Shown here piece by piece: positions 15,968 through 63,296 of a DNA stretch of 64,000 nucleotides. This DNA comes from Tepidisphaeraceae bacterium (GTDB lineage Bacteria > Planctomycetota > Phycisphaerae > Tepidisphaerales > Tepidisphaeraceae): NCBI GenBank assembly GCA_035483795.1, contig DATHPP010000425.1:9951-73950 (forward strand), written 5' to 3'. The position numbers and the translations under genes were made by a program. The notes beneath the pieces were generated by a model that was given only the letters and a program-made list of their open reading frames with translations, was not told where the DNA came from and did no database searches. Numbering within the stretch: the stretch's first letter is position 1; each line of letters begins with the position of its first letter.

Positions 15968-15978
15968 CGCCGGGCGCT

Positions 15979-17904: not shown

Positions 17905-17910
17905 GGTTCG

Positions 17911-18018: not shown

Positions 18019-18945
18019 TCACGAATTTTGCCCGCTCCAGGCGTTGGCGGCGTTGAAGTCGGGGCTGATCCCGTTGGTGAAGACGATCTGCGTATCGCTG
18101 ACCGTCTTGAATCGTCCGTTGCGCAGGCTGGTCGAGGTGATGGTGAAGCTCTCCCCGCTCTGGCTCAGATCGAGCAGTCCGCCGTTGCGCAGGTTCAGTT
18201 GCGTGATGCAGGCCGCGCCGGCGTTGCGGTGCAGGCAGTGGATGGTGCCGCCGTCACAGGTTGCCGTGGGGACGAGGTAGGTGCCGCGGGTGAACAGGTC
18301 TCCAGCGAAACAGATCAGGGCCGTGACCGGGGTCGAGTTGACCAGAACCTGGCCGCCGTCGTTGACCACGTTGCTGTAGGTGACGCCCGAGCCCAGATTG
18401 CAGACGCCGCCGGTGACGTTGACGTTTCCGACCGTGGTGGTGTCGGTGTAGTTGTCGGTGGCGATGCCGATGCCGCCTGATCCGCCCAGGACGTTGATAT
18501 CGCAGGCGGCGTTGTTGGCGCGGATGCGGACGGTTTCCTTGCCGGTGTCGATGGCGCGGGGATTGGCCTGGAAGACGTTGACGATCGGCGACGTCGTCCC
18601 CAGATCGAGGTTGATGCGCTGGCAGCCGACTTGGGTAGAGCTACTGGCGGCGGCGGCGGGGAGGTTGATGCCGACTTGGTTGCCGTTGGTGACGTTGAGC
18701 TTGAGGGGCGTGCCGTTGCTTCCGAACAGGATGGTCCCCGGTGAGGAGGAGCCGAAGGTGCCGTAGATGGTCAAGGTGTTGAAGACGACCCCGCCACCGG
18801 TTTGATCGGAGCCGTTGATGGCGCTGACGGCGGTGGCATCGAAGATCAGATCGTCACCGTTGCCGGGCACGCCGGAGGGGGACCAGTTGCCCGAGGTGGC
18901 GAAGTTGAAATCGCCGATGGTGCCGGACCATGTTTTCTTAGCCAT
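18019..18945 (-). CDS. beta-helix protein with autotransporter-associated beta-strand-repeat style N-terminus (fibre/spike candidate)
   Basis: KTWSGTIGDFNFATSGNWSPSGVPGNGDDLIFDA followed by G/N/T/V-rich strands. This repeat style is common in the PVC group as far as I recall. Confidence 0.6.
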   Translation of the reverse strand: MAKKTWSGTIGDFNFATSGNWSPSGVPGNGDDLIFDATAVSAINGSDQTGGGVVFNTLTIYGTFGSSSPGTILFGSNGTPLKLNVTNGNQVGINLPAAAASSSTQVGCQRINLDLGTTSPIVNVFQANPRAIDTGKETVRIRANNAACDINVLGGSGGIGIATDNYTDTTTVGNVNVTGGVCNLGSGVTYSNVVNDGGQVLVNSTPVTALICFAGDLFTRGTYLVPTATCDGGTIHCLHRNAGAACITQLNLRNGGLLDLSQSGESFTITSTSLRNGRFKTVSDTQIVFTNGISPDFNAANAWSGQNS

Positions 18946-18953
18946 GATGGTTC

Positions 18954-18985
18954 AGGGGGGTGAGGGAGAGGGAGAGGGTGAGGCA
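18954..18985. repeat. family A G-run element
   Basis: ggggggtgagggagagggagagggtgaggcag lies between the stop at 19017 and the start at 18945. Confidence 0.6.
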
Positions 18986-26467: not shown

Positions 26468-26997
26468 TGCTTCTCCGGCCAGCGCATCCACGGATGAAGA
26501 TAAGTCACGATCCCCTCTTTCACCATCTCGTCGATCGCCTTGTGGCAGCCGGCGCAGTAACGGTAGTCATCCACCAGCGCCATGGCGCCCGGGAGCATGC
26601 GCTTGGCCAGCCATTCACAGACGAAGCGGTAGGAGGAATACCAGTCGCAATCGAGATACACGAACGCGAACTTCACCTCAGGGTCGAACTCCGGCAGCGT
26701 CTTCTGGAACGTCCCTTTGACGCAGATGACGTTGTGATACTCGGCCAGGTGCTCGATCACATGATCGCTCCTGAACTGGCCCGGTGGATTGTCCTGATCC
26801 AGCCAGGGATCATAAGGGGCGTCATACGGCATGCCCTCGAAGGTGTCGAAGGCGTAGACCGTCCGTCCATAGCCAGCGAGCTGCACCGTCGAGCCGCCTT
26901 CAAACACGCCGAATTCCGCGATCGGTCCCGGCGGCACCTTGGGGATCATCTGCGAGAAATCCGCTGAGTGGGAAATGATCGGCGCGGGGGTGTACAT
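26464..26997 (-). CDS. TylF/macrocin-O-methyltransferase-like SAM methyltransferase
   Basis: IAEFGVFEGGSTVQLA...AFDTFEGMP...VYLDCDWY is the TylF-family pattern. Confidence 0.7.
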   Translation of the reverse strand: MYTPAPIISHSADFSQMIPKVPPGPIAEFGVFEGGSTVQLAGYGRTVYAFDTFEGMPYDAPYDPWLDQDNPPGQFRSDHVIEHLAEYHNVICVKGTFQKTLPEFDPEVKFAFVYLDCDWYSSYRFVCEWLAKRMLPGAMALVDDYRYCAGCHKAIDEMVKEGIVTYLHPWMRWPEKQ

Positions 26998-27000
26998 GGA

Positions 27001-27110
27001 GGAAAGAGAGAGGGGGAGTGGGTGAGGGGGAGAGGGGGGTGACGGGGGAAAGCCTAGCTTTGCTTTTCTCCCACTCGCCCACTCGCCCCCTCTCCCCCTC
27101 CTCCCGCCTC
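27001..27110. repeat. family A G-run element, inverted pair
   Basis: The G-rich arm is 27001-27048, the spacer is aagcctagctttgctttt, and the C-rich arm tctcccactcgcccactcgccccctctccccctcctcccgcc is 27067-27110. The C-rich arm overlaps the 3' end of 27054..27791. Confidence 0.75.
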
Positions 27111-27791
27111 CGGCCGCAACGGCTCAAACCCCTCGGGCAGCGCGACATCCGGCGGCGGGGGCAATTCCCGCTCGACTTTCCTGCCCAGGTTCTCCCACTG
27201 CCGCTGGAAGTGATAGGCGTAGGAGCCGATCCGCGCGAAGCGGCAGCCCTCGTTGAAGACCTTCACCTTGAAATCGGCGTCGTTGTCGTGCGGGAACGGG
27301 ATCTTGTCGGGCAGCCCGCCCTTCTCGAGAAACCAGCTTTTGCGGAAGGCCGAGGGGCTGTACCAGCCGAAAATGTCCAGCTCGATCGAGGACCGGCCGG
27401 CGTTGTCGACGGCGCAGAAGTGCTCGAAGCCGGGGCGATCGAAACTCGTGGCGGTGCGGCCGAAGTTGGCCCCGATGTTCGAGCCCGCCACCCCGATGGC
27501 GCCGCACTCGACCAGTCGCAGACAGAGCCAGTCGGCATCGTTGATGTGCCGGCGGATATTCTCGTCCCAGCCGGGGGCATAGACGATATCGGAGTTGTCC
27601 CAGAGGAGAATGTCGTACTTAGCGCGTTTGGCCAGCCAGTTCCATGCCGGATAAACATCATCGGGCGTGGTGCCCACGACGTAGAGCAACTGGTAGGGAC
27701 AGCAGGTATTGTCCGCCAGCATCTGGCGTTTGAGTTCCAGGCAGGCGTTGTTCTCCGGGCTGTCGTGATGGGGGAAGATCAGGGAGATCAT
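27054..27791 (-). CDS. GT-A-like glycosyltransferase (tentative)
   Basis: MISLIFPHHDSPENNACL...YDILLWDNSDIVYAPGWD has a DxD-like motif. The C-terminal EAGGGGEGASGRVGEKQS is encoded by the repeat. Confidence 0.5.
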   Translation of the reverse strand: MISLIFPHHDSPENNACLELKRQMLADNTCCPYQLLYVVGTTPDDVYPAWNWLAKRAKYDILLWDNSDIVYAPGWDENIRRHINDADWLCLRLVECGAIGVAGSNIGANFGRTATSFDRPGFEHFCAVDNAGRSSIELDIFGWYSPSAFRKSWFLEKGGLPDKIPFPHDNDADFKVKVFNEGCRFARIGSYAYHFQRQWENLGRKVERELPPPPDVALPEGFEPLRPEAGGGGEGASGRVGEKQS

Positions 27792-35945: not shown

Positions 35946-36631
35946 GCCGCCAGCGGTTCACACCCCGGAAATCCTCCCGCCTTCCGCGCCAGAAACAGGG
36001 CCTGATCGTGTCCCCACCGCGCCGTCGCCTTGTGCATGTAAAGCGGCTGGGGCTGTCCCGTGCGCGAATAGTGCTCGTGCCGGATGGTCAGGTCCGGGCG
36101 CTGCCAGAGGAGAGGAGAAACGGGAGAGGGGGAGAGGGGGTGAGGGGGCGAGGGGGTGAGGGTGACATCGTGCAATTCCTCATCCGCGAAGTAATGGTTG
36201 TATCCCGGCCAGAACGCTCCAGCGCCGCGGTTGAATCTCAGGATGAACCCGCGGCTCAGCAGGGGCGAACCGCAGATGCGCTCAGAACCCGATTCGCCGG
36301 TGCACTGCATCACACCTAAAGCCCCGTGGCCAAAATGGGCGGTACACTCATGGGCAATCCGGCAGGCGGGCAGGTCCGGGGGATACATATCGTCGCCGGC
36401 ACAGCAGATCCACTGGAGGTCGAATTCCTCCTCCAAGAGGAAGCGGCACAGGGCGTTGGTCGCTTTGGGATAACCTTCGTAGGCACCCCAGAGGACGTAT
36501 TCGGCGCCGACCCGCTCCATGCCTTCATCGCGGAAGACAGCGCACTTCCAGCCCTTGTCCCGCCAGGCACAGAGGACGGGATCGCAGTCCGAGGCGGACT
36601 TGGCGCTGGGGAAAGCGACGAAGGGGGACAC
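35942..36631 (-). CDS. hypothetical protein with an in-frame G-run element insertion
   Basis: ...FADEELHDV[TLTPSPPHPLSPSPVSPL]LWQRPDLTIRHEHY.... The bracketed residues are encoded by repeat 36108-36166. AGDDMYP is a possible DxD motif. Confidence 0.5.
   Translation of the reverse strand: MSPFVAFPSAKSASDCDPVLCAWRDKGWKCAVFRDEGMERVGAEYVLWGAYEGYPKATNALCRFLLEEEFDLQWICCAGDDMYPPDLPACRIAHECTAHFGHGALGVMQCTGESGSERICGSPLLSRGFILRFNRGAGAFWPGYNHYFADEELHDVTLTPSPPHPLSPSPVSPLLWQRPDLTIRHEHYSRTGQPQPLYMHKATARWGHDQALFLARKAGGFPGCEPLAA
36108..36166. repeat. family A G-run element inside a CDS
   Basis: ggagaggagaaacgggagagggggagagggggtgagggggcgagggggtgagggtgac. Confidence 0.7.
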
Positions 36632-38026: not shown

Positions 38027-38055
38027 TCCCCGCGTCTTCGCGTCACCGCGTCTCA
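38027..38055. repeat. octamer-array element (family B), opposite orientation
   Basis: The reverse complement reads gagacgcg gtgacgcg aagacgcg gggacacg gagac. It lies at the junction between the stop at 38053 and the start at 38024. Confidence 0.65.
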
Positions 38056-38352
38056 AATTTTGACCCACTCGGCAAACCCGAACACGCTGGTCATGTCGCC
38101 GTTGACGCTGGCCTTGATGAGGACGTTGTTGTTGTGCTCCTCCCAGCTCTCGGCGTACTGCGTGATGTTCGCCGTGCTCTTGGGGATGTAGGCCCAGGTG
38201 TTGCCCCCATCGAGCGAGAAAAACCCGTCGGCGGTCGTGGAGTTGTTCCAGATGATGACGTGGTTGTACATCGCCGAGGAGGACGGCATTTTGATGAGCG
38301 TGACCGGGGTCGCGCCGTTGGAGCTGATGCCGATGGTGCCGCTTGAGTACAT
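38053..38352 (-). CDS. small Asp-box (BNR-type) beta protein, decoration-protein candidate
   Basis: From ATG 38352: MYSSGTIGISSNG...FFSLDGGNTWAYIP contains SxDxGxTW, an Asp-box. It follows the capsid and decoration genes. Confidence 0.5.
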   Translation of the reverse strand: MYSSGTIGISSNGATPVTLIKMPSSSAMYNHVIIWNNSTTADGFFSLDGGNTWAYIPKSTANITQYAESWEEHNNNVLIKASVNGDMTSVFGFAEWVKI

Positions 38353-38383
38353 GATAAATCTCGGGAGGAGGGGAGGAGGGAGA

Positions 38384-38464
38384 GTCACTTGTCACTTGTC
38401 ACTGGTCACTTGTTGGGCGCGCGCCCTCTGGCAAGTGACCAATGACAAATGACCCATGACCAAT
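38384..38464. repeat. inverted heptamer-array element (family C), copy 2
   Basis: GTCACTT GTCACTT GTCACTG GTCACTT, spacer ttgggcgcgcgccctctgg, then caagtgaccaatgacaaatgacccatgaccaa. Confidence 0.8.
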
Positions 38465-38466
38465 AA

Positions 38467-38826
38467 TCAGGCGTTGAGGATCAGGGCCGCCGTGGTGGCG
38501 GCGGAGTTGAACACGCCGTAGGACCGGCCGCAGCGGGTGTTGGTCCCCGAGGTGCCGGTAAGCCACAGATTGAACGGGTCCCAGTAGAGGATCTGCCCGT
38601 CCGTGAAGGCTTCGCCGACTCTTTTGGCGATGGGGGAGACGACGCGCTCGTCGCCGCCGCCGATGGCCAGCTCGCCCGAGGCCCCGATAGCGATCGAGGT
38701 AATGGCGATGCCGACAAAGCCGGTGGTGGGACCGGGGGAGAGGATCTGGAGCTGGCTGCTCGCGATCGCCACCCCGGTGTTGTTGGTGTAGGTGTAACGA
38801 TTGCCACGTTTGAATCCGACGATCAT
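38467..38826 (-). CDS. DUF2190-like head decoration protein
   Basis: From ATG 38826: MIVGFKRGNRYTYTNNTGVAIASSQ...GASGELAIGG...FTDGQILYWDP.... The size (~119 aa) and pattern recall the DUF2190 family. It lies immediately downstream of the capsid gene. Confidence 0.55.
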   Translation of the reverse strand: MIVGFKRGNRYTYTNNTGVAIASSQLQILSPGPTTGFVGIAITSIAIGASGELAIGGGDERVVSPIAKRVGEAFTDGQILYWDPFNLWLTGTSGTNTRCGRSYGVFNSAATTAALILNA

Positions 38827-38868
38827 GACTGTTTCTCGCTTTTTGTGTTTGAGGGAAAGAGGAGGGGA

Positions 38869-38939
38869 GTCACTGGTCACTTGTCATTGGTCACTTGGAA
38901 TGACCGCTGACCAATGACAAATGACAAGTGACAAATGAC
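38869..38939. repeat. inverted heptamer-array element (family C), copy 3
   Basis: GTCACTG GTCACTT GTCATTG GTCACTT, spacer ggaatgaccgct, then gaccaatgacaaatgacaagtgacaaatgac. Confidence 0.8.
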
Positions 38940-38943
38940 CGCT

Positions 38944-40737
38944 TTAATGCCCGGCGTTCTTGTAGACGCCGCGGAAGTCGATGGCCTTTCCGGCAACCGT
39001 ATGGCGCACCAGGTATTTCACGTCCTCGGTGTCGAAGTCGGTCTCCTGGCGGATGACGGGCTCGGGCTCGTCGGTCAGGAAGCTGAGTTCGATGGTGTTG
39101 ACCTGTCCGTCGCGGAAATCGGCCACCAGGAACCAGGCTTGCGTGTCGGCATCGTCCAGACGGACGCTCCCGACCACCTGGTAGCGGTTGTTGTAGGGGT
39201 TGAAATCGCCCACCGTCTGCGGCACCGCAGCCGACGACGACTGGCTGGCGATCAGGGTCCGGGAACCGATCAGTTCCTTGGTCTGCTCCTCGATCGAGGA
39301 GGGGACCAGGAGGAACTTGGGCTCCAATTCAAGGCGGGCCGCACCGGCCAGACCTTTCTGCTTCTTCATCGCCGTCGAGCCGATTTGAAGCTGGAGCACG
39401 CTGGGCACGCCGCCCGAACCGGCGGTGGTGAGGTTGCTGTGGGCGGCGGAGAAGATGGCGTTGCCGTCGGCCATGTTGGCGTTGCCGGTGATGACGGCGT
39501 AGGCCACGTCGTCTTCCTTACGGGCGGCGGAATTGGCCTGCGCCCTGGGAATTGCGCTAAAAGCATCCAAGTCGTCGTTAATGATGGCGTTGCGCGTTAA
39601 ACGGACACCAGCTTTGTACGTGACCAGCACGTAGGTCTCTTTCGAGTCCTGGAGCTGGACGTACTGCATTTCGCCGGCTTCGTTGGCCGCGACCATGTTC
39701 GGGGCTTCCGACAGGACAACCCGATTGATGTTCTTGAAGTCCGGGTTGAAGCGCTTCTCCGCCCAGGCGGGCCAGGTCCGCTTGGCGTCCAGATAGTTGA
39801 AGCGCAAACTTTTGTTGATCGCGTCGAGCGTGATGTTGCCGAAATCCGGGGTGGATTCCGCCAACGCCGCCATGCGCGGGAAGGCTTGCCGCATGCGGCG
39901 CGGGCCCAGGCAATCGGCCAGGCGGGTCTTGGAGTAGCCGTAGACCTCGGTGAATCCAAGGGACGCCAGGTAATGCCGGAACATGTCGAGCATGGACAGC
40001 TCGCGCAGTTCCTTGGCCCGATCGAGGATCTTGCCCTCGTATTTGATGATCTGCTCGGCCGCCAGTCCGGCGCGGAGCACGATGGCCTGCGGCATGGCGG
40101 CGCGCAGGCTGGCGAGGTTCTTGTCCTCGCCCACCTTCACGCTCAGGAGCGGCTTGGCCGACTCGTGCACGTAGCGCAGGATGGCCATCCGGGCCTGCTC
40201 GAAGGTGCCGTTTTCCGCGATCACCGTATTGGCATAGGCATCGGGAACGGCGTGCAGGGCGGCCAGTTTGCGGATGCGGGCCACTCTTTTTGCCTCGAAA
40301 TCCAATGCCGCGTTGTCGTTGTCGGCATCGTCCAGCTTGGCGGCGACACCGCCGGCCGCCGGCGCTTGCATGCGCTGGCCCTGGGGGAGTTTGGCGCCGG
40401 TGGCGGCGCCCAGTGCGGCGATCGCGGCCTCGGTGGCCAGCTTGATGATCTGCTCCTGGCTCATGCCGGTGGCGGGGACGGCCACGCCCTGGCCGGGCAA
40501 TGCGCCAGCGGCGCCGGAATCGCCGGAGTTGCCGGCGACGGAGGGCTGGCCGGGAACGGGCGGGCCGGCGTGCAGGCCGGTATCGCCGCCGTCGCCGTCC
40601 ATCATGCGCGCGAGCTTGGCGTCGATGTCGGCGCGTTTGTCGGCCGACAGGCCGTCGTAATAGGACTTGGCGTCATCATCTGAGGCATCGGCGTCGCAGC
40701 CGTTCGCCACGAGAAGTGACTTGAGATGGGGGTGCAT
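38944..40737 (-). CDS. major capsid protein (HK97-fold type) with long N-terminal scaffold-like region
   Basis: ATG 40737 is preceded by GAAGGAG. The C-terminal ~330 aa (…ITLDAINKSLRFNYLD…TYKAGVRLTRNAIINDD…FLLVPSSIEEQTKELI…) follow the major-capsid pattern. The N-terminus is acidic, Ala-rich and helical. The track start at 40842 lies inside a repeat. Confidence 0.7.
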   Translation of the reverse strand: MHPHLKSLLVANGCDADASDDDAKSYYDGLSADKRADIDAKLARMMDGDGGDTGLHAGPPVPGQPSVAGNSGDSGAAGALPGQGVAVPATGMSQEQIIKLATEAAIAALGAATGAKLPQGQRMQAPAAGGVAAKLDDADNDNAALDFEAKRVARIRKLAALHAVPDAYANTVIAENGTFEQARMAILRYVHESAKPLLSVKVGEDKNLASLRAAMPQAIVLRAGLAAEQIIKYEGKILDRAKELRELSMLDMFRHYLASLGFTEVYGYSKTRLADCLGPRRMRQAFPRMAALAESTPDFGNITLDAINKSLRFNYLDAKRTWPAWAEKRFNPDFKNINRVVLSEAPNMVAANEAGEMQYVQLQDSKETYVLVTYKAGVRLTRNAIINDDLDAFSAIPRAQANSAARKEDDVAYAVITGNANMADGNAIFSAAHSNLTTAGSGGVPSVLQLQIGSTAMKKQKGLAGAARLELEPKFLLVPSSIEEQTKELIGSRTLIASQSSSAAVPQTVGDFNPYNNRYQVVGSVRLDDADTQAWFLVADFRDGQVNTIELSFLTDEPEPVIRQETDFDTEDVKYLVRHTVAGKAIDFRGVYKNAGH

Positions 40738-40830
40738 ATGCACTCCTTCAAAAATGGAGAGGGAGAACGAACTGCGACCCGGCAACGCGCCGAGTCCATG
40801 CACCGCCGTTTTCAAGAGCTGGTGGGGGAG

Positions 40831-40949
40831 GTCACTCGTCATTGGTCACTGGTCATTTGTTTAGGGTTCCCATCCGCGATCAATCGCGGATGGGAGGCCC
40901 TTGGGCGCGCGGCCCTGGCAAGTGACCAGTGACAAGTGACAAATGACCA
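40831..40949. repeat. inverted heptamer-array element (family C), copy 4, with nested hairpin
   Basis: GTCACTC GTCATTG GTCACTG GTCATTT, an inner hairpin cccatccgcgatcaatcgcggatggg, the spacer gggcgcgcggccctgg shared with copy 2, then caagtgaccagtgacaagtgacaaatgaccag. Confidence 0.8.
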
Positions 40950-41199: not shown

Positions 41200-42432
41200 T
41201 TATTTCCGCGGCGTGCTCTGCGCCTGCACGGGATCACCGGGCGAGGGCCAGATGCCGTTGGCGGCCATGGCGGTTTTACCCTTGGGCGTGGCCTCATACC
41301 CGGTCGATCTTCCGCCGTGGGCCATCACCCGTTTGGCATAGCCGTTGTCCGCCAGCCATTCACAGCCCGCCCGCATCGCTTCCAAGCGTCCGTTGAATCG
41401 CGAGGCCAGAGAGCCCATGGTCTGCATGCCGTGCTTGACGATGTGGCCCAGATAAGCCCCGCGGGTGTCGTGAGGAAAGACGGGCGCCTCAGGCGGCGCT
41501 GCGGGCCGGGGCGGTCGGCCGGCGTCGGAGCTTGGAGGATCAGGGGTGCCGGCGGGGATGGGGGCCTTGGCTTTGTCGGCGGGCTTGGGCTCCTGCCAGC
41601 CGGAGGAGTTGGGTGCGCCCGAGGGCGGCTGAGGGTCGTAGAGGACGGCTGAGGCACTGAGCAGGCCGCGGGGGTTACTCGCTGGTTTGCCCACGAAATC
41701 CAGAGCCTCAAGCCCAACGGGGCGGGCGGGATTAGAAAGTATTGCGCCCCAATTGTCTAAGATCGGTTCGACGGTGTACGGGAAAAAAGCGCTAAGCCCA
41801 ATTCCGGCCGCGTCCTCGTTGGCGAAATTCAGCAGGTAGCCGCGCACGTCGCCCATGCCCGGTACTGCACTCGCGTAATCGCCCAAAAACACGTCCCCTC
41901 TCCCCTGCGCCACCGGTTTGCCATCCTGCATCACCGTCGCGATCCTGCCATTCTTGATCCGTCCCACCATGGTCCCGGTGTCGTCCGCCACTTCCTGAAT
42001 CACGTTGCCTTCGGGGTCGGTGGAGGTCTTGACGTTGGGATGGCGGAACCGGCACTTGATCCCATCGGCGGAAGCGTTGACCAGGGCGACGATTTGCTCG
42101 ACGGTGGTTTTGTCGATGTCGAAGGGCTTGCCCAGGGCGATGCCTTCGGTGATGAGCGCGACGTTCTTGATGATCCCGTTGTCGAAATCGACGGAGACGC
42201 CGGAATCGGAATACGCAGTCGGAGCGCGGAGAGCGGCGAAGGGGCCTTTGAGCGCGGCGGCATTGGCGGCGGCCGCTGCGGGCTTGGCCTTTTTCTTGTT
42301 GTGCTTGCGGAACATCGAATACGCGATAGCCGCGGCCTGGGCCTGGTCCTTGGCGGTGCCATCTTTCAAGAGGATAGGGATTGCCCGAGCCACGAAGGAT
42401 TTCTCAGACTCTCCGGGATTTACGTCTGGCAC
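41200..42432 (-). CDS. prohead protease-like (HK97/S78-type, tentative), possibly with a scaffold region
   Basis: It lies upstream of the capsid gene. IKCRFRHP and GIGLSAFFPY resemble the His and Ser blocks of S78 proteases. The N-terminal ESEKSFVARAIPILLKDG...AAAIAYSMFRK motif is common at phage head-protein N-termini. Confidence 0.45.
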   Translation of the reverse strand: MPDVNPGESEKSFVARAIPILLKDGTAKDQAQAAAIAYSMFRKHNKKKAKPAAAAANAAALKGPFAALRAPTAYSDSGVSVDFDNGIIKNVALITEGIALGKPFDIDKTTVEQIVALVNASADGIKCRFRHPNVKTSTDPEGNVIQEVADDTGTMVGRIKNGRIATVMQDGKPVAQGRGDVFLGDYASAVPGMGDVRGYLLNFANEDAAGIGLSAFFPYTVEPILDNWGAILSNPARPVGLEALDFVGKPASNPRGLLSASAVLYDPQPPSGAPNSSGWQEPKPADKAKAPIPAGTPDPPSSDAGRPPRPAAPPEAPVFPHDTRGAYLGHIVKHGMQTMGSLASRFNGRLEAMRAGCEWLADNGYAKRVMAHGGRSTGYEATPKGKTAMAANGIWPSPGDPVQAQSTPRK

Positions 42433-42581
42433 AGCGAGTTTTCCTTGAAAAAGTTGTTAGAATGGCGGCGTCAGTCGCCAGGTTCACGATCCACAATTCA
42501 CGCCGTCCCTCGCCGCGAGAAGTCTTTCTGGCGATTGACCTCGCGCGGGGGCGGCGCTGCGCCGGACAGGAAGAAAACAAA

Positions 42582-43370
42582 TTGAAGCCCCTCATCAAAC
42601 TTGGCGATCATTTCGGGCGCTTGACCGTCGCGGAATCTCTCGGCTCCAAGCTCATGAACGGCAAACGGCGCAGTCTGTGGCGTTGCACTTGCGAATGCGG
42701 TGGAGAAGCGACGACCATCACGGCATCTCTGAGAAACGGAACAACGCGGAGTTGCGGATGCCTGCGTGGTTCAGCCCATTTCAAACGGGCGACGAATCAA
42801 AATGACGAGGTGCTTCCGACGAAGGATTTGCGCGGCAAGGTCTTCGGGCGACTTCGGGTCATGAAGTTCGATGGCTATCGAAGATTTAAAGGGGGCCAAA
42901 ATAGACCAAACGGCGCTTCGCGCGGAATGTGGCTCTGTCAATGCGAATGTGGAAACACCACGATTGTCGAAACGTCGTCGCTGACCACGGGGAACGCTAA
43001 AAGCTGCGGATGCCTCCAGCGCCATCGGGCTTCGGAAGCCAAAACGGGGACGATTCCCAAATCCCGCCTGCGTCTCGGCGAATCGGAAATGCGAAGAACC
43101 TTCCGAAACTGCCGTCGCACCGCCTTAAAGAAGGGCTTTGCATTCGAGTTGGACGTAGAAACGTTTCACCGGATCACACGGTCGAATTGTCATTACTGTG
43201 GCGCGGAACCCGCTGGCTTTAGTAAAACCGGAAGGGCTTTCGGACCTTACGTCCACAACGGCATCGATCGCGTGAACAATAATCTCGGCTATCTCATGTC
43301 CAATTGCGTCCGGCCAAACGTCACATGGATGTCTCCACTTTTCTACGCTGGGCGCGGGCCGTCACGATGA
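42582..43370 (+). CDS. HNH homing-endonuclease-like protein with disrupted C-terminal catalytic motif (possible pseudogene)
   Basis: From TTG 42582: KPLIKLGDHFGRLTV..., two LW(R/L)C(T/Q)CECGxxxxxxxxxLxxGxxxSCGC modules, then CHYCGAEP...NGIDRVNNNLGYLMSNCV. The expected CCxxCNxxK block is absent here. A typical tail, AKRHMDVSTFLRWARAV, continues in another frame. Confidence 0.5.
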   Translation: MKPLIKLGDHFGRLTVAESLGSKLMNGKRRSLWRCTCECGGEATTITASLRNGTTRSCGCLRGSAHFKRATNQNDEVLPTKDLRGKVFGRLRVMKFDGYRRFKGGQNRPNGASRGMWLCQCECGNTTIVETSSLTTGNAKSCGCLQRHRASEAKTGTIPKSRLRLGESEMRRTFRNCRRTALKKGFAFELDVETFHRITRSNCHYCGAEPAGFSKTGRAFGPYVHNGIDRVNNNLGYLMSNCVRPNVTWMSPLFYAGRGPSR

Positions 43371-53795: not shown

Positions 53796-56700
53796 TTACT
53801 TTTCCCCGCCGGACGCCTCATCAGGCGGATTCGGCTCCACGGTAGGTTCGGGAGGCGCCGGGGGGGGCGAGGCGGGAAGAATGGGCGTTGGGTTCTGGGT
53901 AGTGATCTCGTCGCGGAATCCGGTGACCGTTCCATCGGCATCGCGGATGAAATGACGGGTCATTCCCGACGTCTCGTCTTTCACTTCCGAAGTCAATCCA
54001 TCGGCATCGCGGACGATCGTATGAATCCCCGGAGCGCGAGGCGGCACGGTGACGTTGACGATCGGCGCTTCCACATTCACCTGCGCGGGAGGTGCCGGCG
54101 GCGGAAGGACCGGGGCGGCCACGTTGACGATCGGCGCTTCGACGGTGATCTGCGGCGGCTCGGGTGGCTCGGGTGGATCGGGGAGCTGAATGATCGGAGC
54201 GAGATTCACCACCGGCGCTTCCAGATACACATCGGGCGCAGCTGACGGCGGCGGGGCGTGCAGATGAATGACCGGCGGCTGCACTGTCACCTGCGGCGCG
54301 GCAGACGGCTCGACGTTGATGATCGGCGACTCGACCGTCACCTGGGGCGATGCCTGCGGCGCGGAGGGGGCGGCGTGATAGTGCATTACAGGAGCAGGTT
54401 GTGGGGGAAGGTCCACATTGACGATCGGGGACACGTTCACCGGGGACTGCACCGTGAATTGCGGCGGCAGGGGGGGCAGGGGAGTCGGCAGGGGGGGCTG
54501 CGGGGGAAATTCCACGTTGATGATCGGTGACACGTTCACCTGCGCCGGAGCTGGCGCTTGCACGGCCAATCCGGCGGCGGCTCTGAGCGATGCCAGGTCG
54601 ATCTGCGGCGCTTGATGAATGTGAATGGCGGGAAGCTCCGGCCGCTCTCCCCCTCGCCCCCTCTCCCTTTCGCCCGCTCTCCTCACCAAACGGCGCTCTT
54701 CGGCGCTCATGCTGGTCGTCTGCCCGAACGGGCCGTAAGGATCGCTGTCGGGATAGAACCGGCTTTCCAGATCGATCTGTCCCGGCTGCGGGCCTGGGGG
54801 AAACGTCTTGGCCGTGTTCGGCACGCCGATATTTTCGGTCAGCGTCCTGGCGATCCATTTGTCGCAGACGTAGCTGGGATCGAAAATGAAATTGAACATC
54901 GTGCAGCGTGAACCATTGGCGAACGAGCAGGTGGCGCAGCTCGACACTTCATCGGGCGATTGGCGGTAATTCGGCACCGAGGGCGGGGGAACCTGCGGAA
55001 GCGGCCACGGTCCGCCGGCCACTTCATCGCGGGCCTGGCGATCGGCTGCCGATTGCACGTCGACCCCCCCTGCGGGACTGCCGCGCTGCTGCTGGAGGAT
55101 GAAATCGCTGACGCCTTCCACCGTGCCCCCCCCGCCCGGCGCCGCACTGGCCGCGATGCGACCGCCCGCCTTGGCTGGCGTTTTGCCGTTCTTGCCCTTC
55201 CCATTGCCGTCCTGTCCTGAGCTTGTCGAAGGGTTGCCATTTCCGCCCGGAGGCTTGGGCGCGGGGGCCGCCGGCATGGCCACGTGCACGTGCACGCCCT
55301 GTCCACTTCCCCCTCCCGGCTTTGGCGCCGGTGTCGCCGCGGCTCCGTTTCCTCCGCCTCCCCCTCCCCCACTCTCCCCCTCTCCCCCTCCTCCTCCCGC
55401 CGGCACCGCCGGTTCCTCCACTCCGCCACCGATGACTTTCCCAGCTTTGTTGGTGACCGGATCGCCGGTGATCGTCCCGCCCGTCGGCGTCTGCACCGGC
55501 AGGAGCGGCTGGGTGTAATTCTTCTGCACCGGCAGACCGCCCTGTTGGAACATCGCTGACAGATCAAGCAGGTTGGCGCTGACGGCGTCGACCGTCCCCT
55601 GGCGATTCTCGATGGCCGCTTTGACCAATTCGCGGACGTTGTTCCGCTCGTCGTCGTTCTCCGGCAGCGTGAGTCCGCGGTTTTCGGCCAGGTTCTTCTC
55701 CTCGGCCAGCTTCTCGATGACGTGCGAATAGCGCCCGCCGCGCAACGCGACGATCTCCTCGCGGGTGATCAGGCGGTTCTTGAGCAGGATGACGAAGGCG
55801 TTGGCTTCCTTCTCGGGATCGATCCACGACTGACTGGGCGGGAGATAATCCGCTTCGACATAGCGAAAACGATCGGCGAGGAACTCGTCGGTTGAGAATC
55901 CCTCGATCCCGTCCAGCCGGCCTTCCATCACCGCCCAGTTGAAAAACAGTTCGTAGGCGGGCCGGACCATGGCGTCGATGAATAGTTGCTGCTCGGGCTC
56001 CTGTTCCTTGCGATCTTCCAGCATGTCCTGGCGGGCGGCGGAGTAGTTGGAGTCGTTGCGCCGCGCGATCTGGCCGTAGCTCTGGCCCAAAGCCGCGCCG
56101 ATGCCGCGCACGGTCGTCTCCATGAACGGGTTGTATTGATTGCCCGGCGATTGCGGCACCAGGCTCTGGACCTTCTCACCCGGTACGGTTCGCGCGACCA
56201 TGCCGGGGACGAAGTCGATTTCGTTCATCCCACTGGGCGTCTGGCCGCTGCCGTTGGTGGGCGGACCGAATGAGGTGGCGGGGCCGATGTTGTTGCCGGG
56301 CATCGGTTGCTCGATGATTAATCCGATGCAGCTTTCCATTTCCATGCGCCAGATCGAGGCCGTCTGAACGCGGGAGATATCGCGCATGTCGGCCATCACC
56401 GGGGACAGACCGGTCACGCCGCGGGTCTGCAAAACTCTTTCCTGATCGAAATAGTGAAACATCCGCTGCCGGGGAACGCGCTCGGAAAAGAATGCGTGCC
56501 GATATAAAACGTCGTTGGGGTTACGGGTGTAAATGTGGTATGCGAGCGGCGCCCCGTTCTCGTCCACTTCCACCCCGCCTCTGACTTCCCGTCCGGCATA
56601 GCTGAGAATGCGCAGGTCGAACTGTTCCGCCTCGAAGGCTTGCAAGCGCAGACCGACCGGTTGATTGCGATCGATGATCCCCTCGTTGAGCAAACCGGGG

Positions 56701-57239
56701 AACTTGTAGGACCACATCCACAGGTGCTCGCCGGCGATGAACTTGTCGGCCGCGGCCAGTCTTTGCATCTGGTTGAAGCTCTTGCGCCGCTCGATGTCGC
56801 AGTGCAGACACCAGCGGTGCCACAAGCGGGCCACCACCAGATTCAATTGCGTCAGCGGTTTGCCCTTGGGGTCTTTGGCGTGGGGGATGACTTGAATGCC
56901 CTTGCCGACGACGTTGCGGACGAAGGATTTCTTCGCCGACCGCGCCAGCCAGGAATCGCGATCGAGCTGCCGCGCCCGCCCGATCATCACCGGGGAATCG
57001 GGGATGTTGGCTAAATCTGCCGAGGCGTTGTTGGCCCGCCAGTCGGTGTTGCGGCGTCCGGTATCGGCGGCGGCGTGGATGGAGAGGGCGGCCTGTCCCT
57101 CGCGCATCCTTTTCTTGGTCGCCTGGAGGGCCATCACCTCGACCTGGGCGCGGAGCCGGCGGGCCTGCTTCTCGGCGGGCAGCTCCATCTCCGGCGCGGT
57201 GGCGCGGTTGATCGGGCGGTAGGGATTGCGGCGGGGCAT
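53796..57239 (-). CDS. portal protein (lambda gpB family) with ~600-aa C-terminal extension
   Basis: From ATG 57239 (MPRRNPYRPINR...). RRNTDWRANNASADLANIPDSPVMIGRARQLDRDSWLARS and VRGIGAALGQSYGQIARRNDSNYSAARQDMLE parallel conserved lambda gpB blocks. The C-terminal half is Gly-rich and Pro-rich, with 8 or so PI[VI]NV repeats. Confidence 0.85.
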   Translation of the reverse strand: MPRRNPYRPINRATAPEMELPAEKQARRLRAQVEVMALQATKKRMREGQAALSIHAAADTGRRNTDWRANNASADLANIPDSPVMIGRARQLDRDSWLARSAKKSFVRNVVGKGIQVIPHAKDPKGKPLTQLNLVVARLWHRWCLHCDIERRKSFNQMQRLAAADKFIAGEHLWMWSYKFPGLLNEGIIDRNQPVGLRLQAFEAEQFDLRILSYAGREVRGGVEVDENGAPLAYHIYTRNPNDVLYRHAFFSERVPRQRMFHYFDQERVLQTRGVTGLSPVMADMRDISRVQTASIWRMEMESCIGLIIEQPMPGNNIGPATSFGPPTNGSGQTPSGMNEIDFVPGMVARTVPGEKVQSLVPQSPGNQYNPFMETTVRGIGAALGQSYGQIARRNDSNYSAARQDMLEDRKEQEPEQQLFIDAMVRPAYELFFNWAVMEGRLDGIEGFSTDEFLADRFRYVEADYLPPSQSWIDPEKEANAFVILLKNRLITREEIVALRGGRYSHVIEKLAEEKNLAENRGLTLPENDDERNNVRELVKAAIENRQGTVDAVSANLLDLSAMFQQGGLPVQKNYTQPLLPVQTPTGGTITGDPVTNKAGKVIGGGVEEPAVPAGGGGGEGESGGGGGGGNGAAATPAPKPGGGSGQGVHVHVAMPAAPAPKPPGGNGNPSTSSGQDGNGKGKNGKTPAKAGGRIAASAAPGGGGTVEGVSDFILQQQRGSPAGGVDVQSAADRQARDEVAGGPWPLPQVPPPSVPNYRQSPDEVSSCATCSFANGSRCTMFNFIFDPSYVCDKWIARTLTENIGVPNTAKTFPPGPQPGQIDLESRFYPDSDPYGPFGQTTSMSAEERRLVRRAGERERGRGGERPELPAIHIHQAPQIDLASLRAAAGLAVQAPAPAQVNVSPIINVEFPPQPPLPTPLPPLPPQFTVQSPVNVSPIVNVDLPPQPAPVMHYHAAPSAPQASPQVTVESPIINVEPSAAPQVTVQPPVIHLHAPPPSAAPDVYLEAPVVNLAPIIQLPDPPEPPEPPQITVEAPIVNVAAPVLPPPAPPAQVNVEAPIVNVTVPPRAPGIHTIVRDADGLTSEVKDETSGMTRHFIRDADGTVTGFRDEITTQNPTPILPASPPPAPPEPTVEPNPPDEASGGEK
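54644..54695. repeat. family A element (C-rich on plus strand) inside the portal CDS
   Basis: gctctccccctcgccccctctccctttcgcccgctctcctcac encodes ...GERERGRGGER... in the portal extension. Confidence 0.65.
55349..55410. repeat. family A element (C-rich on plus strand) inside the portal CDS
   Basis: cctccgcctccccctcccccactctccccctctccccctcctcctcccgcc encodes GGGGGEGESGGGGGGG. Confidence 0.65.
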
Positions 57240-57426
57240 TACAATGGAGACCGATGAAATTTCTTCACGCGATGATGACGTCGATGGCGCGGGCCGTCTG
57301 TCTGCTTTCGCTCGGGGTCTTGGCAGCAAAGGGAGATGCGCATACGACGCCGATGGGGAAGGAGGTCCTTCTGCTCGCGATCGCGTTGACTGCGGGAATC
57401 GGATGGATGGAGAGGCCGAGAAAAGA

Positions 57427-57789
57427 TTAGCGGAGGGCGGCGAGTTGCTGATGACCGCCAAGGGGCTGCCCGACCTCGGTGCGCGAGTTGCTGAGATTTT
57501 CGTGCAGGATGACGAGCATCTTTTCCACGTCGTCGATCAGTTCCCTTTGCTCGCGGATCAAACGGGCCAGCGGCGCACGGCCTTCCGGTCGGATCGGCGA
57601 GGGATCGACGCCCTTTTGGCCTTCGCCGAACATGATCCCGCGCCAAGTGTCATGCACACCGCGAGCCTGGGAAGCCACGTGCATAAGTTGCTGGTTGTTC
57701 TCGAAAAGCATCTGGGCGACGTCATCAAGATTGAGGCCGTCCGGCTTGGCGGGTTGAAGTTGTCCGGCGAGTTGTTCAACGCGGTTCAT
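57427..57789 (-). CDS. hypothetical protein upstream of the portal
   Basis: 120-aa helical ORF in operon orientation. Confidence 0.5.
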   Translation of the reverse strand: MNRVEQLAGQLQPAKPDGLNLDDVAQMLFENNQQLMHVASQARGVHDTWRGIMFGEGQKGVDPSPIRPEGRAPLARLIREQRELIDDVEKMLVILHENLSNSRTEVGQPLGGHQQLAALR

Positions 57790-59865: not shown

Positions 59866-61245
59866 TTACTCAGGTTGAGACTGCGCGTGTCGGATGCGCT
59901 TCTGGGCGATCTTGAAGTAGGCGAGTTCTCTTTCGATGCCGATGAACTTCATCCCTTCCAACACTGCCGCTTTTCCGGTCGAGCCCGAGCCCATGAAGCA
60001 GTCGAGCACCGTGCCGCCGGGCGGGGTGATGAGGCGGATGAGCCAGCGCATCAAGTCGGTGTTTTTGACCGTGGGGTGATGATTCGCTCGTGGCGGGATT
60101 TCTTTTCGCTCGCTGCCGTCGGGTCGATGCGTGTTCGTGTTCATCCCGTAGGGCTGGCCGTCGTCGCGTCGGACGTGTTTCTTCGGGGCGTCTTCCAATC
60201 CCTCGTTGCGGTCGCGCCGGCTGGCTTTGGCGCAGTAGAAGAAACGGGAAGCGCCACCGGAGTCGCCGTGTCGGTTCTGTGAATTCTCGACGCCGCCCAA
60301 GCCATTGCCGAAAACCTCGTTCAAATAGTTCGGCCCGCGTGGCGCTTGCACTCCAGCCGATCGCGTGACGCCGCTCTGCTCATTCAGCAGCCTCACCGGG
60401 CAGTCGGGGTGACAGTCGCCGTTACAGGAGGGATGATGGGATAAAACGAGGTTCGCCGGCCAGCGACCTTTGTCCATGCCGTTCAGGTACGGCGCGAGCG
60501 ACGCCGGCCCATTCTCGAATTGCCCGTAAGCATGCCGCCCCTTGTTCTGGTCATGGCACAGGCGTTGCGCTGCTGCTGCTGCTGCTGCTGCTTTATCTCC
60601 GTTGGAGGCGAATCCGATCCTCGTCCCGTCGATATTCAGCGCCCCCGTTCCGTGCTTCAAGACGTTCCTGGCTACCGTCGATTCACTCAGGGGCTTACGA
60701 CAGAGCCACCAGTCTTCCACGGCGGGTTTGAGGGCGGTGCCGAAGCCGTCATATTGCTTCGCGGCATCGGTGGCGGGCGCGGTAATCGGCGGATGCGATT
60801 GTTCTTTGCCCGGCTTGTCTCCGACCCAAATCGTTTTTCCGTCCTGATTCGGCCTCGCGTGCGGATTCTCTCTGATGAATTTCCGCTTCGCGCCGGCTTC
60901 GCGGTCGATCGCTTTCCCCACGGACAAACTTTTCGGGAAGCCCGTACCAAAGATGTGCGCAATTCTTTCGCGTACCTCAAACCCCGCGTCTTCAATCGCC
61001 ATCCCCGTCCAGTGGCTCGTCCGCGGGATCGCCCACACCAGGGCATGACCGCCGGGCTTGAGCACCCGTAAGCATTCTTTCATCACTTCGGTCAGGAAGG
61101 CGATGAAGGCTTCACGGGGGCCTAAGTCATCCCAAGCCTTCCCCATGAACGAAATTCCCGCCGGCGGATCAGTCACGATGGCATCGACGCTGTCGGCGGC
61201 CAGCGTGCGTAGCACCTCCAGGCAATCGCCGCGGAACAGGCGCAC
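59866..61245 (-). CDS. site-specific DNA methyltransferase (N4/N6 type, beta-class motif order), orphan
   Basis: DAIVTDPPAGISFMGKAWD is motif IV and VLDCFMGSGSTGKAAVLEG is motif I near the C-terminus. The likely start is GTG 61245 (RLFRGDCLEVL). The track start at 61380 overlaps the terminase and a repeat. No restriction partner is visible. Confidence 0.8.
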   Translation of the reverse strand: MRLFRGDCLEVLRTLAADSVDAIVTDPPAGISFMGKAWDDLGPREAFIAFLTEVMKECLRVLKPGGHALVWAIPRTSHWTGMAIEDAGFEVRERIAHIFGTGFPKSLSVGKAIDREAGAKRKFIRENPHARPNQDGKTIWVGDKPGKEQSHPPITAPATDAAKQYDGFGTALKPAVEDWWLCRKPLSESTVARNVLKHGTGALNIDGTRIGFASNGDKAAAAAAAAQRLCHDQNKGRHAYGQFENGPASLAPYLNGMDKGRWPANLVLSHHPSCNGDCHPDCPVRLLNEQSGVTRSAGVQAPRGPNYLNEVFGNGLGGVENSQNRHGDSGGASRFFYCAKASRRDRNEGLEDAPKKHVRRDDGQPYGMNTNTHRPDGSERKEIPPRANHHPTVKNTDLMRWLIRLITPPGGTVLDCFMGSGSTGKAAVLEGMKFIGIERELAYFKIAQKRIRHAQSQPE

Positions 61246-61250
61246 GGTCT

Positions 61251-61305
61251 TGCCCTCGCCCCCTCTCCGCGTCCCCGTGTCGCCGCGTCTTCGCGTCTCT
61301 TTCAC
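61251..61305. repeat. octamer-array element (family B) with a family A-like end
   Basis: The reverse complement reads gagacgcg aagacgcg gcgacacg gggacgcg gagagggggcgaggg. It lies between the terminase stop (61307) and the methyltransferase start. Confidence 0.65.
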
Positions 61306-61306
61306 C

Positions 61307-63296
61307 TCAGCGCGGCCTGGGCCTAATCGGCGGGCGGGAATGCACCCAGTCAAATTTCTGTTTCTCCGGCTTGGGGTCATTGGCGACTTGGATGGGACGG
61401 GGCTCGGGATTGCCGGCCCCCAGATCGAAGGCGGCGGCGCACTGGAGGACTTCCGTGTCCCACATATGGTTCGCTGAGCCGCTGGTGACCTTCACCCACA
61501 GCTCTTTCCCCGTTTTCCGCTCGAGAACCTTGTGTTCCGACGCCATCTGGCTGATGTAGTCCTCGTCGATCCCCGAATTCACCGCCCATTTGCCCAGATC
61601 GGGATCGTGAATCAGCCGGTACAGCAGGTCTTTCGCCTTCTCGGTGTCGATGTTGAACAGGACGATGTCGTGGTTCTTCTGGTGACTCTTGCCCAGCAGC
61701 GTTGCCAGCGTCGTTGACGAGCCCTTGGTCGGCCGGATGCGCAGGCGATCGGATTGAGCGAATTGATAGACCTCCGACCAGCGCGGGCCGCCCGAGTCGA
61801 TGAAAAGCACCTGCGGCGCGATGCCGTTCGGCCCGATTTGCCCCCCTGTCGCCCCCGCCCCCCCTGAAACGGAGGCGTTTTGGGCGTTTTGGACGAGATT
61901 TTGGCCGTTCTCGAGGGGAAAAACCTTGTTCAGACACCGCTGCCGCAGCTCCTCGAAAGAGTTGGCGATGCCGTGCTCGATCAGTTGGCTCCGGAACTCA
62001 TAGCCCCAGGCCCGGACAACGTAGGGGAACCATCCATCTCGGGCAGTCGTCCCTTGCGTATCGGCACTGGCGACCAGCGCTCGAGCCCAGGCGGGAACGA
62101 TGCCCGGCGGCGGGGCATTGAACGACTTTTCGCGGATGAAAGAGGGCGCTGTCTTGGCAACCTGCAACTCGAAGGGCTCGGCGAGCCACGAATTGCGGAA
62201 GTTCATCGTCTTGGCGGGGTCATGTTCGCAGCGAATGAACTCCGCGACGGCATCGGCGAAGCTGGGCCACGGTGAATACAGGCAGGAGATGTGGAACCCG
62301 ACGCGCTTCGAGCGCGGGCGCTCTCCGATCAGCTTTCCCTCCAGCGTGACCGACTGACCCTCGCTGACCCACAGACCCTTGAGGAGCATGGCGGGTTTCC
62401 GCGAGTCCTCGATCCGCGCCTTGCACTTGCTGCACTCGTACCAGGCCAGCTTGTTGACCTGGATCTCATCGGCCAGACGTACCTTGTCGGGGATGTCCAG
62501 CTTGGGCCACTTGACCTGCGTGAAAACCAGCCGCTGAAACGTCCCGCAGAAGGGGCACGGAACTTCAAAATGGCGCCTGTCGCCGCTCGCTTCGTAGGAT
62601 TTCCAGATCGCCCCTTCGCGATTGGTGGGGCTGGAGACTTTGAAGATGCGCTTGCGGTGCTGGTAGGTGAGCGTGCGCTGATAGGCCAGCGAGATCGGAT
62701 CGGCTTCGCGCCCTGAGAAGGCGATGAACTTGTCCACCTCGTCAAAGAAACACGTAGCGTATTTGGCGTGCGGCGAGAGTGGACGGCGAGCCGGCCCAGC
62801 CGCCGAACAACGTCATCGAATCCAGGACGATCGTGTGAGTTTTGGTGTCCCACTTCCGGCTGCTCATGTGGCGCTTCAGCGCCGGGGAGCTTTCCAGGAG
62901 CGGCTTGATCTTTTCAGCGAAGACCTCCTTACAGGCTTGCTCGACGGGAAGGACCAGCAGCGCCGGGCCGGGGTCCTGATCGATGCAGAAGCCGATGACG
63001 TTGTGAAGCGCCAGGCTGACGCCGATCTGCGTGGCCTTGACGACGGTGATTTCTTCGATGCCCTCCTCGACCGCGGCGTCCATGATGCCGGCGAGATAGG
63101 GCGTTCTGTCATTGTTGAACGGGCCGGGCTCGGGACTGGTGCCGGGGGCGAGAACGCGATGGACGGCCGACCATTGGCTGGGGGTGAGCCGATCGGGCCA
63201 GCTCCAGGCGCGCTGCTCGGATTCGGACCAGTGCGCTTCCGCTGCCTCTGACTGCGGCGACGGATCAGGGACGGGTGAGACAGACGGCTCAATCAC
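61307..63296 (-). CDS. terminase large subunit (lambda GpA family), reading frame broken by +1 at 62741-62747
   Basis: Track ORFs 62742..63296 (…TPYLAGIMDA…VVKATQIGVSLAL…PGPALLVLPVEQ…IRYVFL*) and 61307..62737 ((V)DKFIAFSGREADP…FEVPCPFCGTFQRLVFTQVKW…) are the two halves of one GpA-type protein. Joined, they read IRYVFLDEVDKF, a Walker B motif. Confidence 0.85.
62741..62747 (-). other. CTT TGA C at the terminase frame junction (prfB-type +1 site, or a 1-nt insertion)
   Basis: The coding strand reads GTG TTT CTT TGA CGA GGT GGA C. Shifting +1 on CTT-T gives ...V F L D E V D.... Confidence 0.4.

Follow-up and report, generated by a model that had tools for sequence, protein, structure and literature searches.

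Inverted STRR-type heptamer arrays at the capsid and decoration gene junctions of a probable planctomycete phage

Described heptamer repeats and the four arrays of the window

Heptamer repeats of the short tandemly repeated repetitive (STRR) type have been fingerprinting targets in cyanobacteria since 1990. The STRR2 unit of Calothrix and Anabaena, reportedly described by Mazel et al. 1990, is TT(G/T)GTCA, and the heptamer GTCATTK would be this unit in another register. Here we describe four inverted arrays of the heptamer GTCAYTK (GTCA[CT]T[GT]) in a stretch of 64,000 nucleotides from contig DATHPP010000425.1 of a Tepidisphaeraceae assembly (the window), which is a phage by its gene content in Pfam and PHROGs. 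By unit and layout, the four elements can be classed as STRR-type heptamer hairpins, a kind of element already known from cyanobacteria. What is new is the host range, which extends to Planctomycetota and other phyla, together with the phage context.

Some 7-bp STRRs of cyanobacteria form hairpins within operons, as in the hupS-hupL spacer, and roles in transcript stability or translational coupling have been proposed for such hairpins; one lies in the promoter/leader region of hoxW (PMC2670836). The function of STRR heptamers is still called unknown (PMC2670836, PMC4692102). Heptamers of other sequence are GGGAATC/GGGGAYT, which stands between genes of Xanthomonas and Nostoc either in one array or in an inverted pair of arrays (PMC4692102), and TAACTGA, known from Beggiatoaceae, Cyanobacteria and Bacteroidetes (PMC4679880). 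The original prediction had considered the elements in the window to be unlike any described repeat, a view not supported in the light of the reports of hairpin STRRs in cyanobacterial operons (PMC2670836) and of inverted heptamer pairs (PMC4692102). Neither PMC4692102 nor PMC4679880 reports a phage or Planctomycetota occurrence of the heptamers described there, and among the papers searched there was no report of an STRR-type hairpin repeat from Planctomycetota or from a phage.

With cyanobacterial STRRs the arrays share the head-to-tail repetition of a 7-nt unit (4-5 per arm, in register), an intergenic, dispersed, multi-copy occurrence (four copies in the window, several per metagenome-assembled genome (MAG) in Tepidisphaeraceae) and the arrangement of inverted arrays as hairpins within operons (PMC2670836). 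They differ in residing not in a (heterocystous) cyanobacterial genome but in a phage of 61% GC with capsid relatives in Planctomycetota genomes, in being rich in GTCACTK, and in that all four copies are inverted whereas most cellular matches are tandem-only. Only the GTCATTK units, 41% of those in the window, correspond to a rotated TTKGTCA. The other 59% are GTCACTK, which accounts for 10-27% of the units in the cellular groups examined and for about 32% in Chloroflexota, the latter on 41 units only. The simple sequence repeats of Xanthomonas/Nostoc and Beggiatoaceae are similar in being short intergenic 7-nt arrays, single or inverted, nearer to the upstream open reading frame (ORF) and patchy across phyla, but they have other unit sequences and are candidates for G-quadruplex formation or for single-stranded binding sites.

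Two further kinds of element deserve comparison. Repetitive extragenic palindromic (REP) elements are palindromes in operon transcripts which, as 3' stem-loops, stabilise the upstream mRNA without terminating transcription (PMC12642595). Like REPs and the REP-derived hairpins (REPINs) of Proteobacteria, the arrays are dispersed extragenic palindromes, and some Tepidisphaeraceae copies form subfamilies with conserved cores; unlike them, they have arms made up of heptamers in tandem, where those elements have a unique palindrome of 20-40 nt, and their spacers vary. No Y1-transposase family, as would be expected of a REP-associated tyrosine transposase (RAYT), was found among the approximately 30 window ORFs run against Pfam and PHROGs, the host genomes not having been searched for RAYT. 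A target-site duplication of the type left by MITEs (miniature inverted-repeat transposable elements) was not evident on either side of the window copies or of 48 copies from Phycisphaerae, insertion sequence (IS) elements not having been sought; the flanks of these copies continue as degenerate units. The other comparison is with the terminator or attenuator hairpins that follow major capsid genes of phages between cistrons, such as T-phi after gene 10 of T7, and with the RNase III R-sites of T7. The window arrays resemble these in placing a strong stem-loop directly after the capsid and decoration genes, but they are without a U-tract, and their stems are 2-3 times longer and built from a repeat common to cellular genomes.

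The four arrays, all read on the minus strand, lie at 15885-15968 (copy 1), 38384-38460 (copy 2), 38869-38939 (copy 3) and 40831-40947 (copy 4). When one mismatch is allowed, the two-unit pattern GTCAYTKGTCAYTK has 25 matches in the window, all within these arrays, compared with 0.18 expected from dinucleotide-preserving shuffles, and a relaxed scan allowing up to 3 mismatches gave no fifth array in the window. In copy 1, a left arm of 5 units (15885-15919) and a right arm of 4 units, one of them mismatched (15941-15968), enclose a 20-nt spacer, GCCCGAGCCGCGCGGCAAAA, which contains the GC palindrome CCGCGCGG. Copy 2 has 4 units in its left arm (38384-38411), a spacer of about 21 nt with the palindrome GGGCGCGCGCCC, and 4 units, one imperfect, in its right arm (38433-38460); a further degenerate unit takes it to 38467. 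The arms of copy 3 (38869-38896 and 38912-38939, 4 units each) are separated by 15 nt of degenerate units, while those of copy 4 (40831-40858, 4 units with one mismatched, and 40920-40947, 4 units) are separated by a spacer of 61 nt.

Each copy is predicted to fold, on either strand, into one long imperfect hairpin (-42 to -80 kcal/mol, z -4.6 to -9.5), with stems of 28-30 bp that are also obtained on the sense strand. The six longest inverted repeats of the window are the four heptamer arrays and two G-rich repeat hairpins (see below), and Rfam and tRNA scans of the window returned nothing. Copies 2 and 4 have the spacer core GGGCGCGCG(C/G)CCCT..GGC in common. The loop of copy 4 carries a nested hairpin (40868-40895, no strand assigned) with a perfect stem of 11-12 bp, CCCATCCGCGA / TCGCGGATGGG, and the loop TCAA; it is the sole perfect stem of at least 9 bp with a loop of 3-9 nt in the 64-kb window, and it is similar to ordinary GC-rich hairpins of related phages. 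Copy 4 looks like copy 2 plus a nested insertion. The core of copies 2 and 4 (GGSCGCGCGCCC beside the arrays) had no match in the genome contigs or viral contigs searched, so that a donor genome was not pinned down; the arrays may well have multiplied inside the phage instead of having been captured recently. In all these respects, namely the location of the arrays, their hairpins of about 28 bp, the common spacer sequence of two copies and the nested perfect hairpin, folding and pattern searches bear out what had been read from the letters.

Hairpins at capsid and decoration gene junctions in this phage and in others

All four arrays are intergenic. On the leftward mRNA, copy 4 lies 252 nt past the stop of a 410-aa gene without family match (41200-42432, minus strand, as are all genes of this paragraph) and 93 nt ahead of the ATG (40737) of the major capsid gene (38944-40737, 597 aa), a Phage_capsid_4 protein with its capsid domain at residues 289-594 behind an N-terminal extension. 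Copy 3 begins 4 nt past the capsid stop (38944-38946) and ends 42 nt ahead of the ATG (38826) of the head decoration or cement gene (38467-38826, 119 aa; PF09956, phrog_122). Copy 2 follows the cement stop (38467-38469) by 6 nt and ends 31 nt ahead of the start (38352) of an ORF with an Asp-box-like SLDGGNTW motif (38053-38352), which both source contigs annotate as a gene of 99 aa. Copy 1 begins 10 nt past the stop of a 641-aa NHL-repeat/He_PIG Ig-domain protein (15979-17904) and ends 8 nt ahead of a doubtful 100-aa ORF. The onset of arrays 1-3 is thus 4-10 nt past stop codons, without overlap with the start region of the next gene. ORF and domain positions confirm the gene context given in the original prediction, with the capsid, DUF2190-like (PF09956), Asp-box and NHL genes on a leftward mRNA. 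Its suspicion of spurious 'MTSD...' N-termini was also justified, as these are artefacts of ORFs running into the arrays, and the capsid is mis-called as 632 aa on one of the two public contigs that carry the phage.

These contigs are an ENA contig, 100% identical over 6.36 kb with the arrays included, and a 121.6-kb JGI contig. The chromosome of Planctomycetales bacterium ZRK34 and a Phycisphaerae MAG encode capsid homologues with 44% identity, and the GC content of the window (0.61) matches that of Phycisphaerae loci (0.60); on these grounds the host is likely to be a planctomycete. No capsid relative from a cultured phage exceeded 33% identity, which is uninformative on the host.

Searches of IMG/VR, GTDB genomes and JGI metagenomes gave capsid relatives of at most 40% identity, none with heptamers, which are too distant for a comparison junction by junction. 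Closer relatives, with 44-81% capsid identity, were obtained from the protein database (L451, L452 and L454-L458). Those with enough sequence keep the gene order portal, X, capsid, cement, next gene, L451 consisting of the capsid gene and its downstream flank only. None of the seven carries a heptamer array. Instead, strong and mutually unrelated stem-loops follow the capsid gene in 5 of 7 and the cement gene in 5 of 6, several of them with T-rich tails. The post-capsid structures are a stem-loop of -46 kcal/mol followed by TTTTTC (L451), and stems of 11 bp (L452), 10 bp followed by TTCCTTTTTCTTTTC (L455), 15 bp (L457) and 12 bp followed by TTTTC (L458). The relatives' loci contain five perfect intergenic stems of at least 9 bp, four after the capsid gene and one after the cement gene, and none elsewhere. 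Ordinary perfect stems are absent from the gaps after capsid and after cement in the window, which implies that the heptamer hairpin stands in place of the ordinary hairpin and is not additional to it. Among more distant capsid lineages, about 11 of 21 have a strong stem-loop directly past the capsid stop.

The repeat also recurs behind capsid genes that are unrelated to this one. In IMG/VR an inverted GTCAYTK array occurs on one contig only (L055, GC 0.67), where it lies between convergent genes, 6 nt past the stop of a major head gene unrelated to that of the window (phrog_10, 6e-72). On a viral contig of GC 0.32 (L039), a third major head gene, again unrelated (phrog_1005, 9e-102), has at least 8 GTCACTR units 5 nt past its stop. 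This second array (1285-1372, minus strand) consists of GTCACTA/GTCACTG units followed by TTCACTG units and is purely direct; it is nevertheless predicted to fold (-37 kcal/mol, z = -3.4), because CTAGT is self-complementary. When 21 ORFs upstream of arrays in viral contigs were tested, those that could be annotated came without exception from the module for head, packaging, connector or tail. Two of them are major head genes (about 2 of 21, compared with about 1-2% expected), and the others are protease/scaffold, adaptor, Ig-domain, minor tail/decoration and TerS genes.

We favour, at roughly even odds (a probability of about 0.5), a reading in which the arrays are intercistronic RNA stem-loops that set the expression of capsid and decoration genes, as leaky terminators or as 3'-end stabilisers. 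They would be transcribed within the leftward late structural mRNA and would form stem-loops of 28-30 bp directly 3' of the capsid, cement and NHL stops and, in one further case, within the leader of the capsid gene. Such structures may act as leaky terminators and/or as barriers to 3'-exonucleases, possibly after processing by RNase III, for which stems of 28-30 bp would be suitable, and the capsid and decoration cistrons would accumulate above their neighbours. At these junctions the heptamer hairpins would take over the job that ordinary GC-rich, terminator-like hairpins do in related phages. The original proposal of hairpins that punctuate an operon gains from the stem-loops which the relatives carry at the same junctions; the RNA function itself, both that the arrays are transcribed and that they influence termination, processing or stability in any way, we still infer.

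The repeat in cellular genomes and the weighing of alternatives

A scan for four tandem units, with one genome per species, returned more than 120 loci, mostly in Nostoc, Calothrix, Scytonema, Fischerella and other cyanobacteria, and also in Planctomycetota, Acidobacteriota and others. An inverted partner was present in 8 of 174 loci from tandem scans. A scan for the inverted pattern (GTCAYTK)3 N8-38 (MARTGAC)3 returned at least 112 loci; among the matches listed, 60 are from Planctomycetota (45 from Tepidisphaeraceae or other Phycisphaerae, often with several copies per MAG, and 15 others), 28 from cyanobacteria, 9 from Acidobacteriota, 7 from Bacteroidota and 5 from Chloroflexota.

A subfamily in Tepidisphaeraceae has a core of about 26 nt, GTATCGCCGATTCCGAATTGTCTTGC, with the near-palindrome GATTCCGAATC, and occurs at paralogous loci in both orientations: two each in the MAGs SPRUCE 308 (L233, L308) and SPRUCE 651 (L223, L226), three in SPRUCE 198 (L243, L279, L305) and one in SPRUCE 338 (L255). 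The shared core suggests a mobile or protein-recognised module. The number of units varies between orthologous copies, being 4/4 in L293 and 6/3 in L298. Core-bearing paralogues and varying unit numbers are marks of a dispersed, slippage-prone repeat.

Several results from the cellular loci weigh against a role as RNA stem-loops. It should be borne in mind that genes were called there by a crude procedure based on GC at third codon positions, applied to the fetched high-GC loci and checked on known genes of the window. The 68 classifiable inverted arrays lie at co-directional (68%), divergent (25%) and convergent (7%) junctions, compared with 68%, 14% and 18% for background junctions in the same loci (chi-square p = 0.024). 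This is opposite to the distribution of terminators or of REP/REPIN elements, the latter being placed 3' of genes and away from promoter regions, and it fits insertion in proportion to intergenic space. When folding of the sense and antisense strands was compared for 46 co-directional host copies and the 4 window copies, the split was 26 vs 24 (Wilcoxon p = 0.79); the sense strand thus has no advantage, and the G-U signature that selection on the RNA would leave is absent. Tandem-only arrays likewise show no bias in orientation relative to the upstream gene (28 vs 26). The genes adjoining host arrays are ordinary housekeeping genes (SecY, chorismate synthase, an amino-acid kinase, a type II secretion system ATPase and others). 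Within the window, the arrays lack the U-tract that directly follows the GC-rich stem-loop of an intrinsic terminator, their tails being C-dominated pyrimidine runs such as CTCCCCTCCTCTTTCCCTC, and hence they are not canonical intrinsic terminators. Finally, this packed operon has few gaps of any size, the capsid and cement junctions being among them, so that a selfish repeat would land there too.

A scan for promoter and terminator consensus sequences gave no canonical match at any array, and a Pfam search of host genes upstream of arrays revealed no functional theme. In co-directional host copies the array usually sets in 4-15 nt past the upstream stop, which is little informative given the short gaps. 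One heptamer hairpin in a Tepidisphaeraceae MAG (L301, 2081-2151) is located 14 nt past the stop of secY, within what is normally the ribosomal-protein (spc) operon. Overall, the cellular genomes give no sign of a specific RNA function for the arrays.

The main and serious rival is a tolerated selfish or neutral intergenic repeat, MITE-, REPIN- or microsatellite-like, which was taken over from the host or multiplied in the phage and for which any RNA effect would be incidental; the arrays would simply have landed in the only gaps able to take 70-120 extra bases. We regard this as possible, though somewhat unlikely. It is in keeping with the dispersal of the repeat in many genomes beside unrelated housekeeping genes, with host junction types that follow intergenic space rather than gene 3' ends, with the lack of strand asymmetry in folding and in array orientation, and with the paralogous Tepidisphaeraceae copies, which carry the 26-nt core in either orientation, and the orthologues of differing unit number. 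The phage itself contributes the nested insertion in copy 4 and the core of copies 2 and 4, which has no match elsewhere and points to a duplication within the phage. Such a repeat would not be expected, however, to replace rather than supplement the ordinary hairpins of relatives at the same junctions, or to lie directly past the capsid stop in three unrelated capsid families, and the share of major head genes among the upstream ORFs of viral contigs also exceeds expectation; neither a target-site duplication nor a transposase is evident, and the arrays are identical in two independent assemblies. The original prediction had itself named a generic host repeat without positional bias as part of the outcome that would speak against it, and this is half borne out: the repeat is generic in several phyla and has no terminator-like bias there, but in phages the positions of the arrays follow a pattern, in the head and structural module.

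The remaining alternatives assign the arrays a function of a different kind or a more specific one. A narrower version of the stem-loop reading, which we judge unlikely in so specific a form, would make the arrays RNase III sites at which the late polycistronic mRNA is divided into segments for capsid, for cement and for the genes downstream, with stabilities that differ, as at the R-sites of T7. RNase III needs about 20 bp of duplex RNA, and the predicted sense-strand stems of 28-30 bp are well above this; the intercistronic arrays flank the capsid and cement cistrons on both sides and, being without a U-tract, are weakly explained by termination alone. Against cleavage speak the stems of the relatives, which are much shorter (10-15 bp) and terminator-like with their T-rich tails, and the lack of a G-U or sense-strand bias. 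It is quite improbable that the heptamer runs serve as RNA or DNA sites for a protein, from host or phage, by which the downstream gene (capsid, cement or Asp-box ORF) is regulated in its translation or transcription. Every window copy does lie 8-93 nt upstream of a start codon, host arrays are enriched in divergent, promoter-containing regions, an STRR hairpin is present in the hoxW promoter region (PMC2670836), and translational regulation was proposed by MacGregor 2015 for TAACTGA repeats just upstream of start codons in Beggiatoaceae (PMC4679880). Yet tandem arrays have no orientation bias, which makes a strand-specific RNA-binding site unlikely, the L055 array lies between convergent genes after a capsid gene, the hairpins of relatives are nearer to the upstream stop (in L456, 7 nt separate the hairpin from the stop and about 220 nt from the start that follows), and no candidate binding protein was found. 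Iteron-like DNA arrays for replication, partition or packaging, an alternative already entertained in the original prediction, are most improbable, the repeated-unit architecture being their sole support. Classic iterons repeat directly, in units of about 17-22 bp, next to an origin or to the gene of a replication initiator, whereas these are palindromically arranged units with a 7-bp period inside a head/tail structural operon that has no genes for replication, partition or terminase recognition close by; moreover, the GTCAYTK repeat is scattered beside housekeeping genes in five phyla, and relatives carry plain hairpins at the array positions.

Further features of the phage and implications

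On the leftward mRNA, C/U-rich runs directly follow hairpins 2, 3 and 4, for example UCUCCCUCCUCCCCUCCUCCC, corresponding to plus-strand purine tracts at 38362-38385 (copy 2), 38850-38870 (copy 3) and 40821-40830 (copy 4); the tails proper of copies 2 and 3 take up 38362-38383 and 38850-38868. The run UCUCCCUCCUCCCCUCCUCCC holds repeated CCUCC, which is anti-Shine-Dalgarno-like, and the ordinary hairpins of relatives are also trailed by C/U- or U-rich tails. A weak terminator tail, a Rho-loading site and an S1-type leader are possibilities for these runs.

The window contains a second family of hairpins, in which inverted arrays of a G-rich octamer (about GAGGGGGN) face CCCCCTC arrays, at 17910-18022 and 26996-27111; further G-rich tracts are located at 1877-1922, 18954-18983, 36106-36148, 54645-54675 and 55348-55401. 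The G-rich hairpin at 17922-18022 sits between the stop of a gene at 18019-18945 and the start of the NHL gene (17904). A three-unit scan for the GAGGGGGN repeat found it in filamentous cyanobacteria, Planctomycetota, Chloroflexota, Saprospiraceae and Streptomyces, and it was absent from all fetched Phycisphaerae loci. With this spread across phyla and this absence, it does not narrow the host and was discarded as a host marker.

The N-terminal extension of the capsid (residues 1-290, about 290 aa) is Asp/Ala/Gly-rich and without a Pfam domain. In PHROGs, the capsid falls into 'major head and protease' fusion families, many homologues having 700-900 aa with ClpP or S49 protease domains; it appears that the window capsid keeps a scaffold-like part without the protease domain. 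The capsid leader (40738-40760, CTCCCTCTCCATTTTTGAAGGAGTGCATATG) consists of a pyrimidine run, a short spacer and (A)GGAGTGC directly before the ATG. This motif is kept in relatives (L452 2975-3000, L454 2975-3000, L455 2545-2571) and looks like a conserved ribosome-binding region.

Other genes of the phage, all on the minus strand, include a gpA-type large terminase (61307-62737), a DNA methylase (59866-61380), a lambda-type portal (53796-57461) and a minor tail protein (14349-15311). Two Cys-rich ORFs, at 42381-43370 (plus strand) and 13614-14327 (minus strand), lie near repeat-bearing regions. One of the two has repeated motifs of the type W.C.CECG...SCGC; the other is Lys/Arg-rich, with CxxC pairs and an HNH-like HHH..Y..H..RWLC..CH motif. 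They are possible nucleic-acid-binding or nuclease proteins.

For annotation, the arrays explain both the spurious 'MTSD...' extensions and the wrong 632-aa capsid call, and the heptamer repeat may provide a host-linking signal for uncultured phages. The presence of heptamer hairpins at the sites where relatives have stem-loops leads to a testable hypothesis for the role of STRR hairpins in RNA. A bolder extension, which we consider rather improbable, is that heptamer hairpins are a modular, fast-evolving RNA punctuation read by a dedicated cellular factor common to Planctomycetota, filamentous cyanobacteria and a few other phyla with large genomes, and that phages of these hosts have co-opted the host repeat time and again for use after their major capsid genes, where it would stand in for ordinary terminators and would bring their most abundant mRNAs under that host pathway. 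If this were true, the replacements seen in phages would be a natural experiment that reveals the long-sought function of STRRs.

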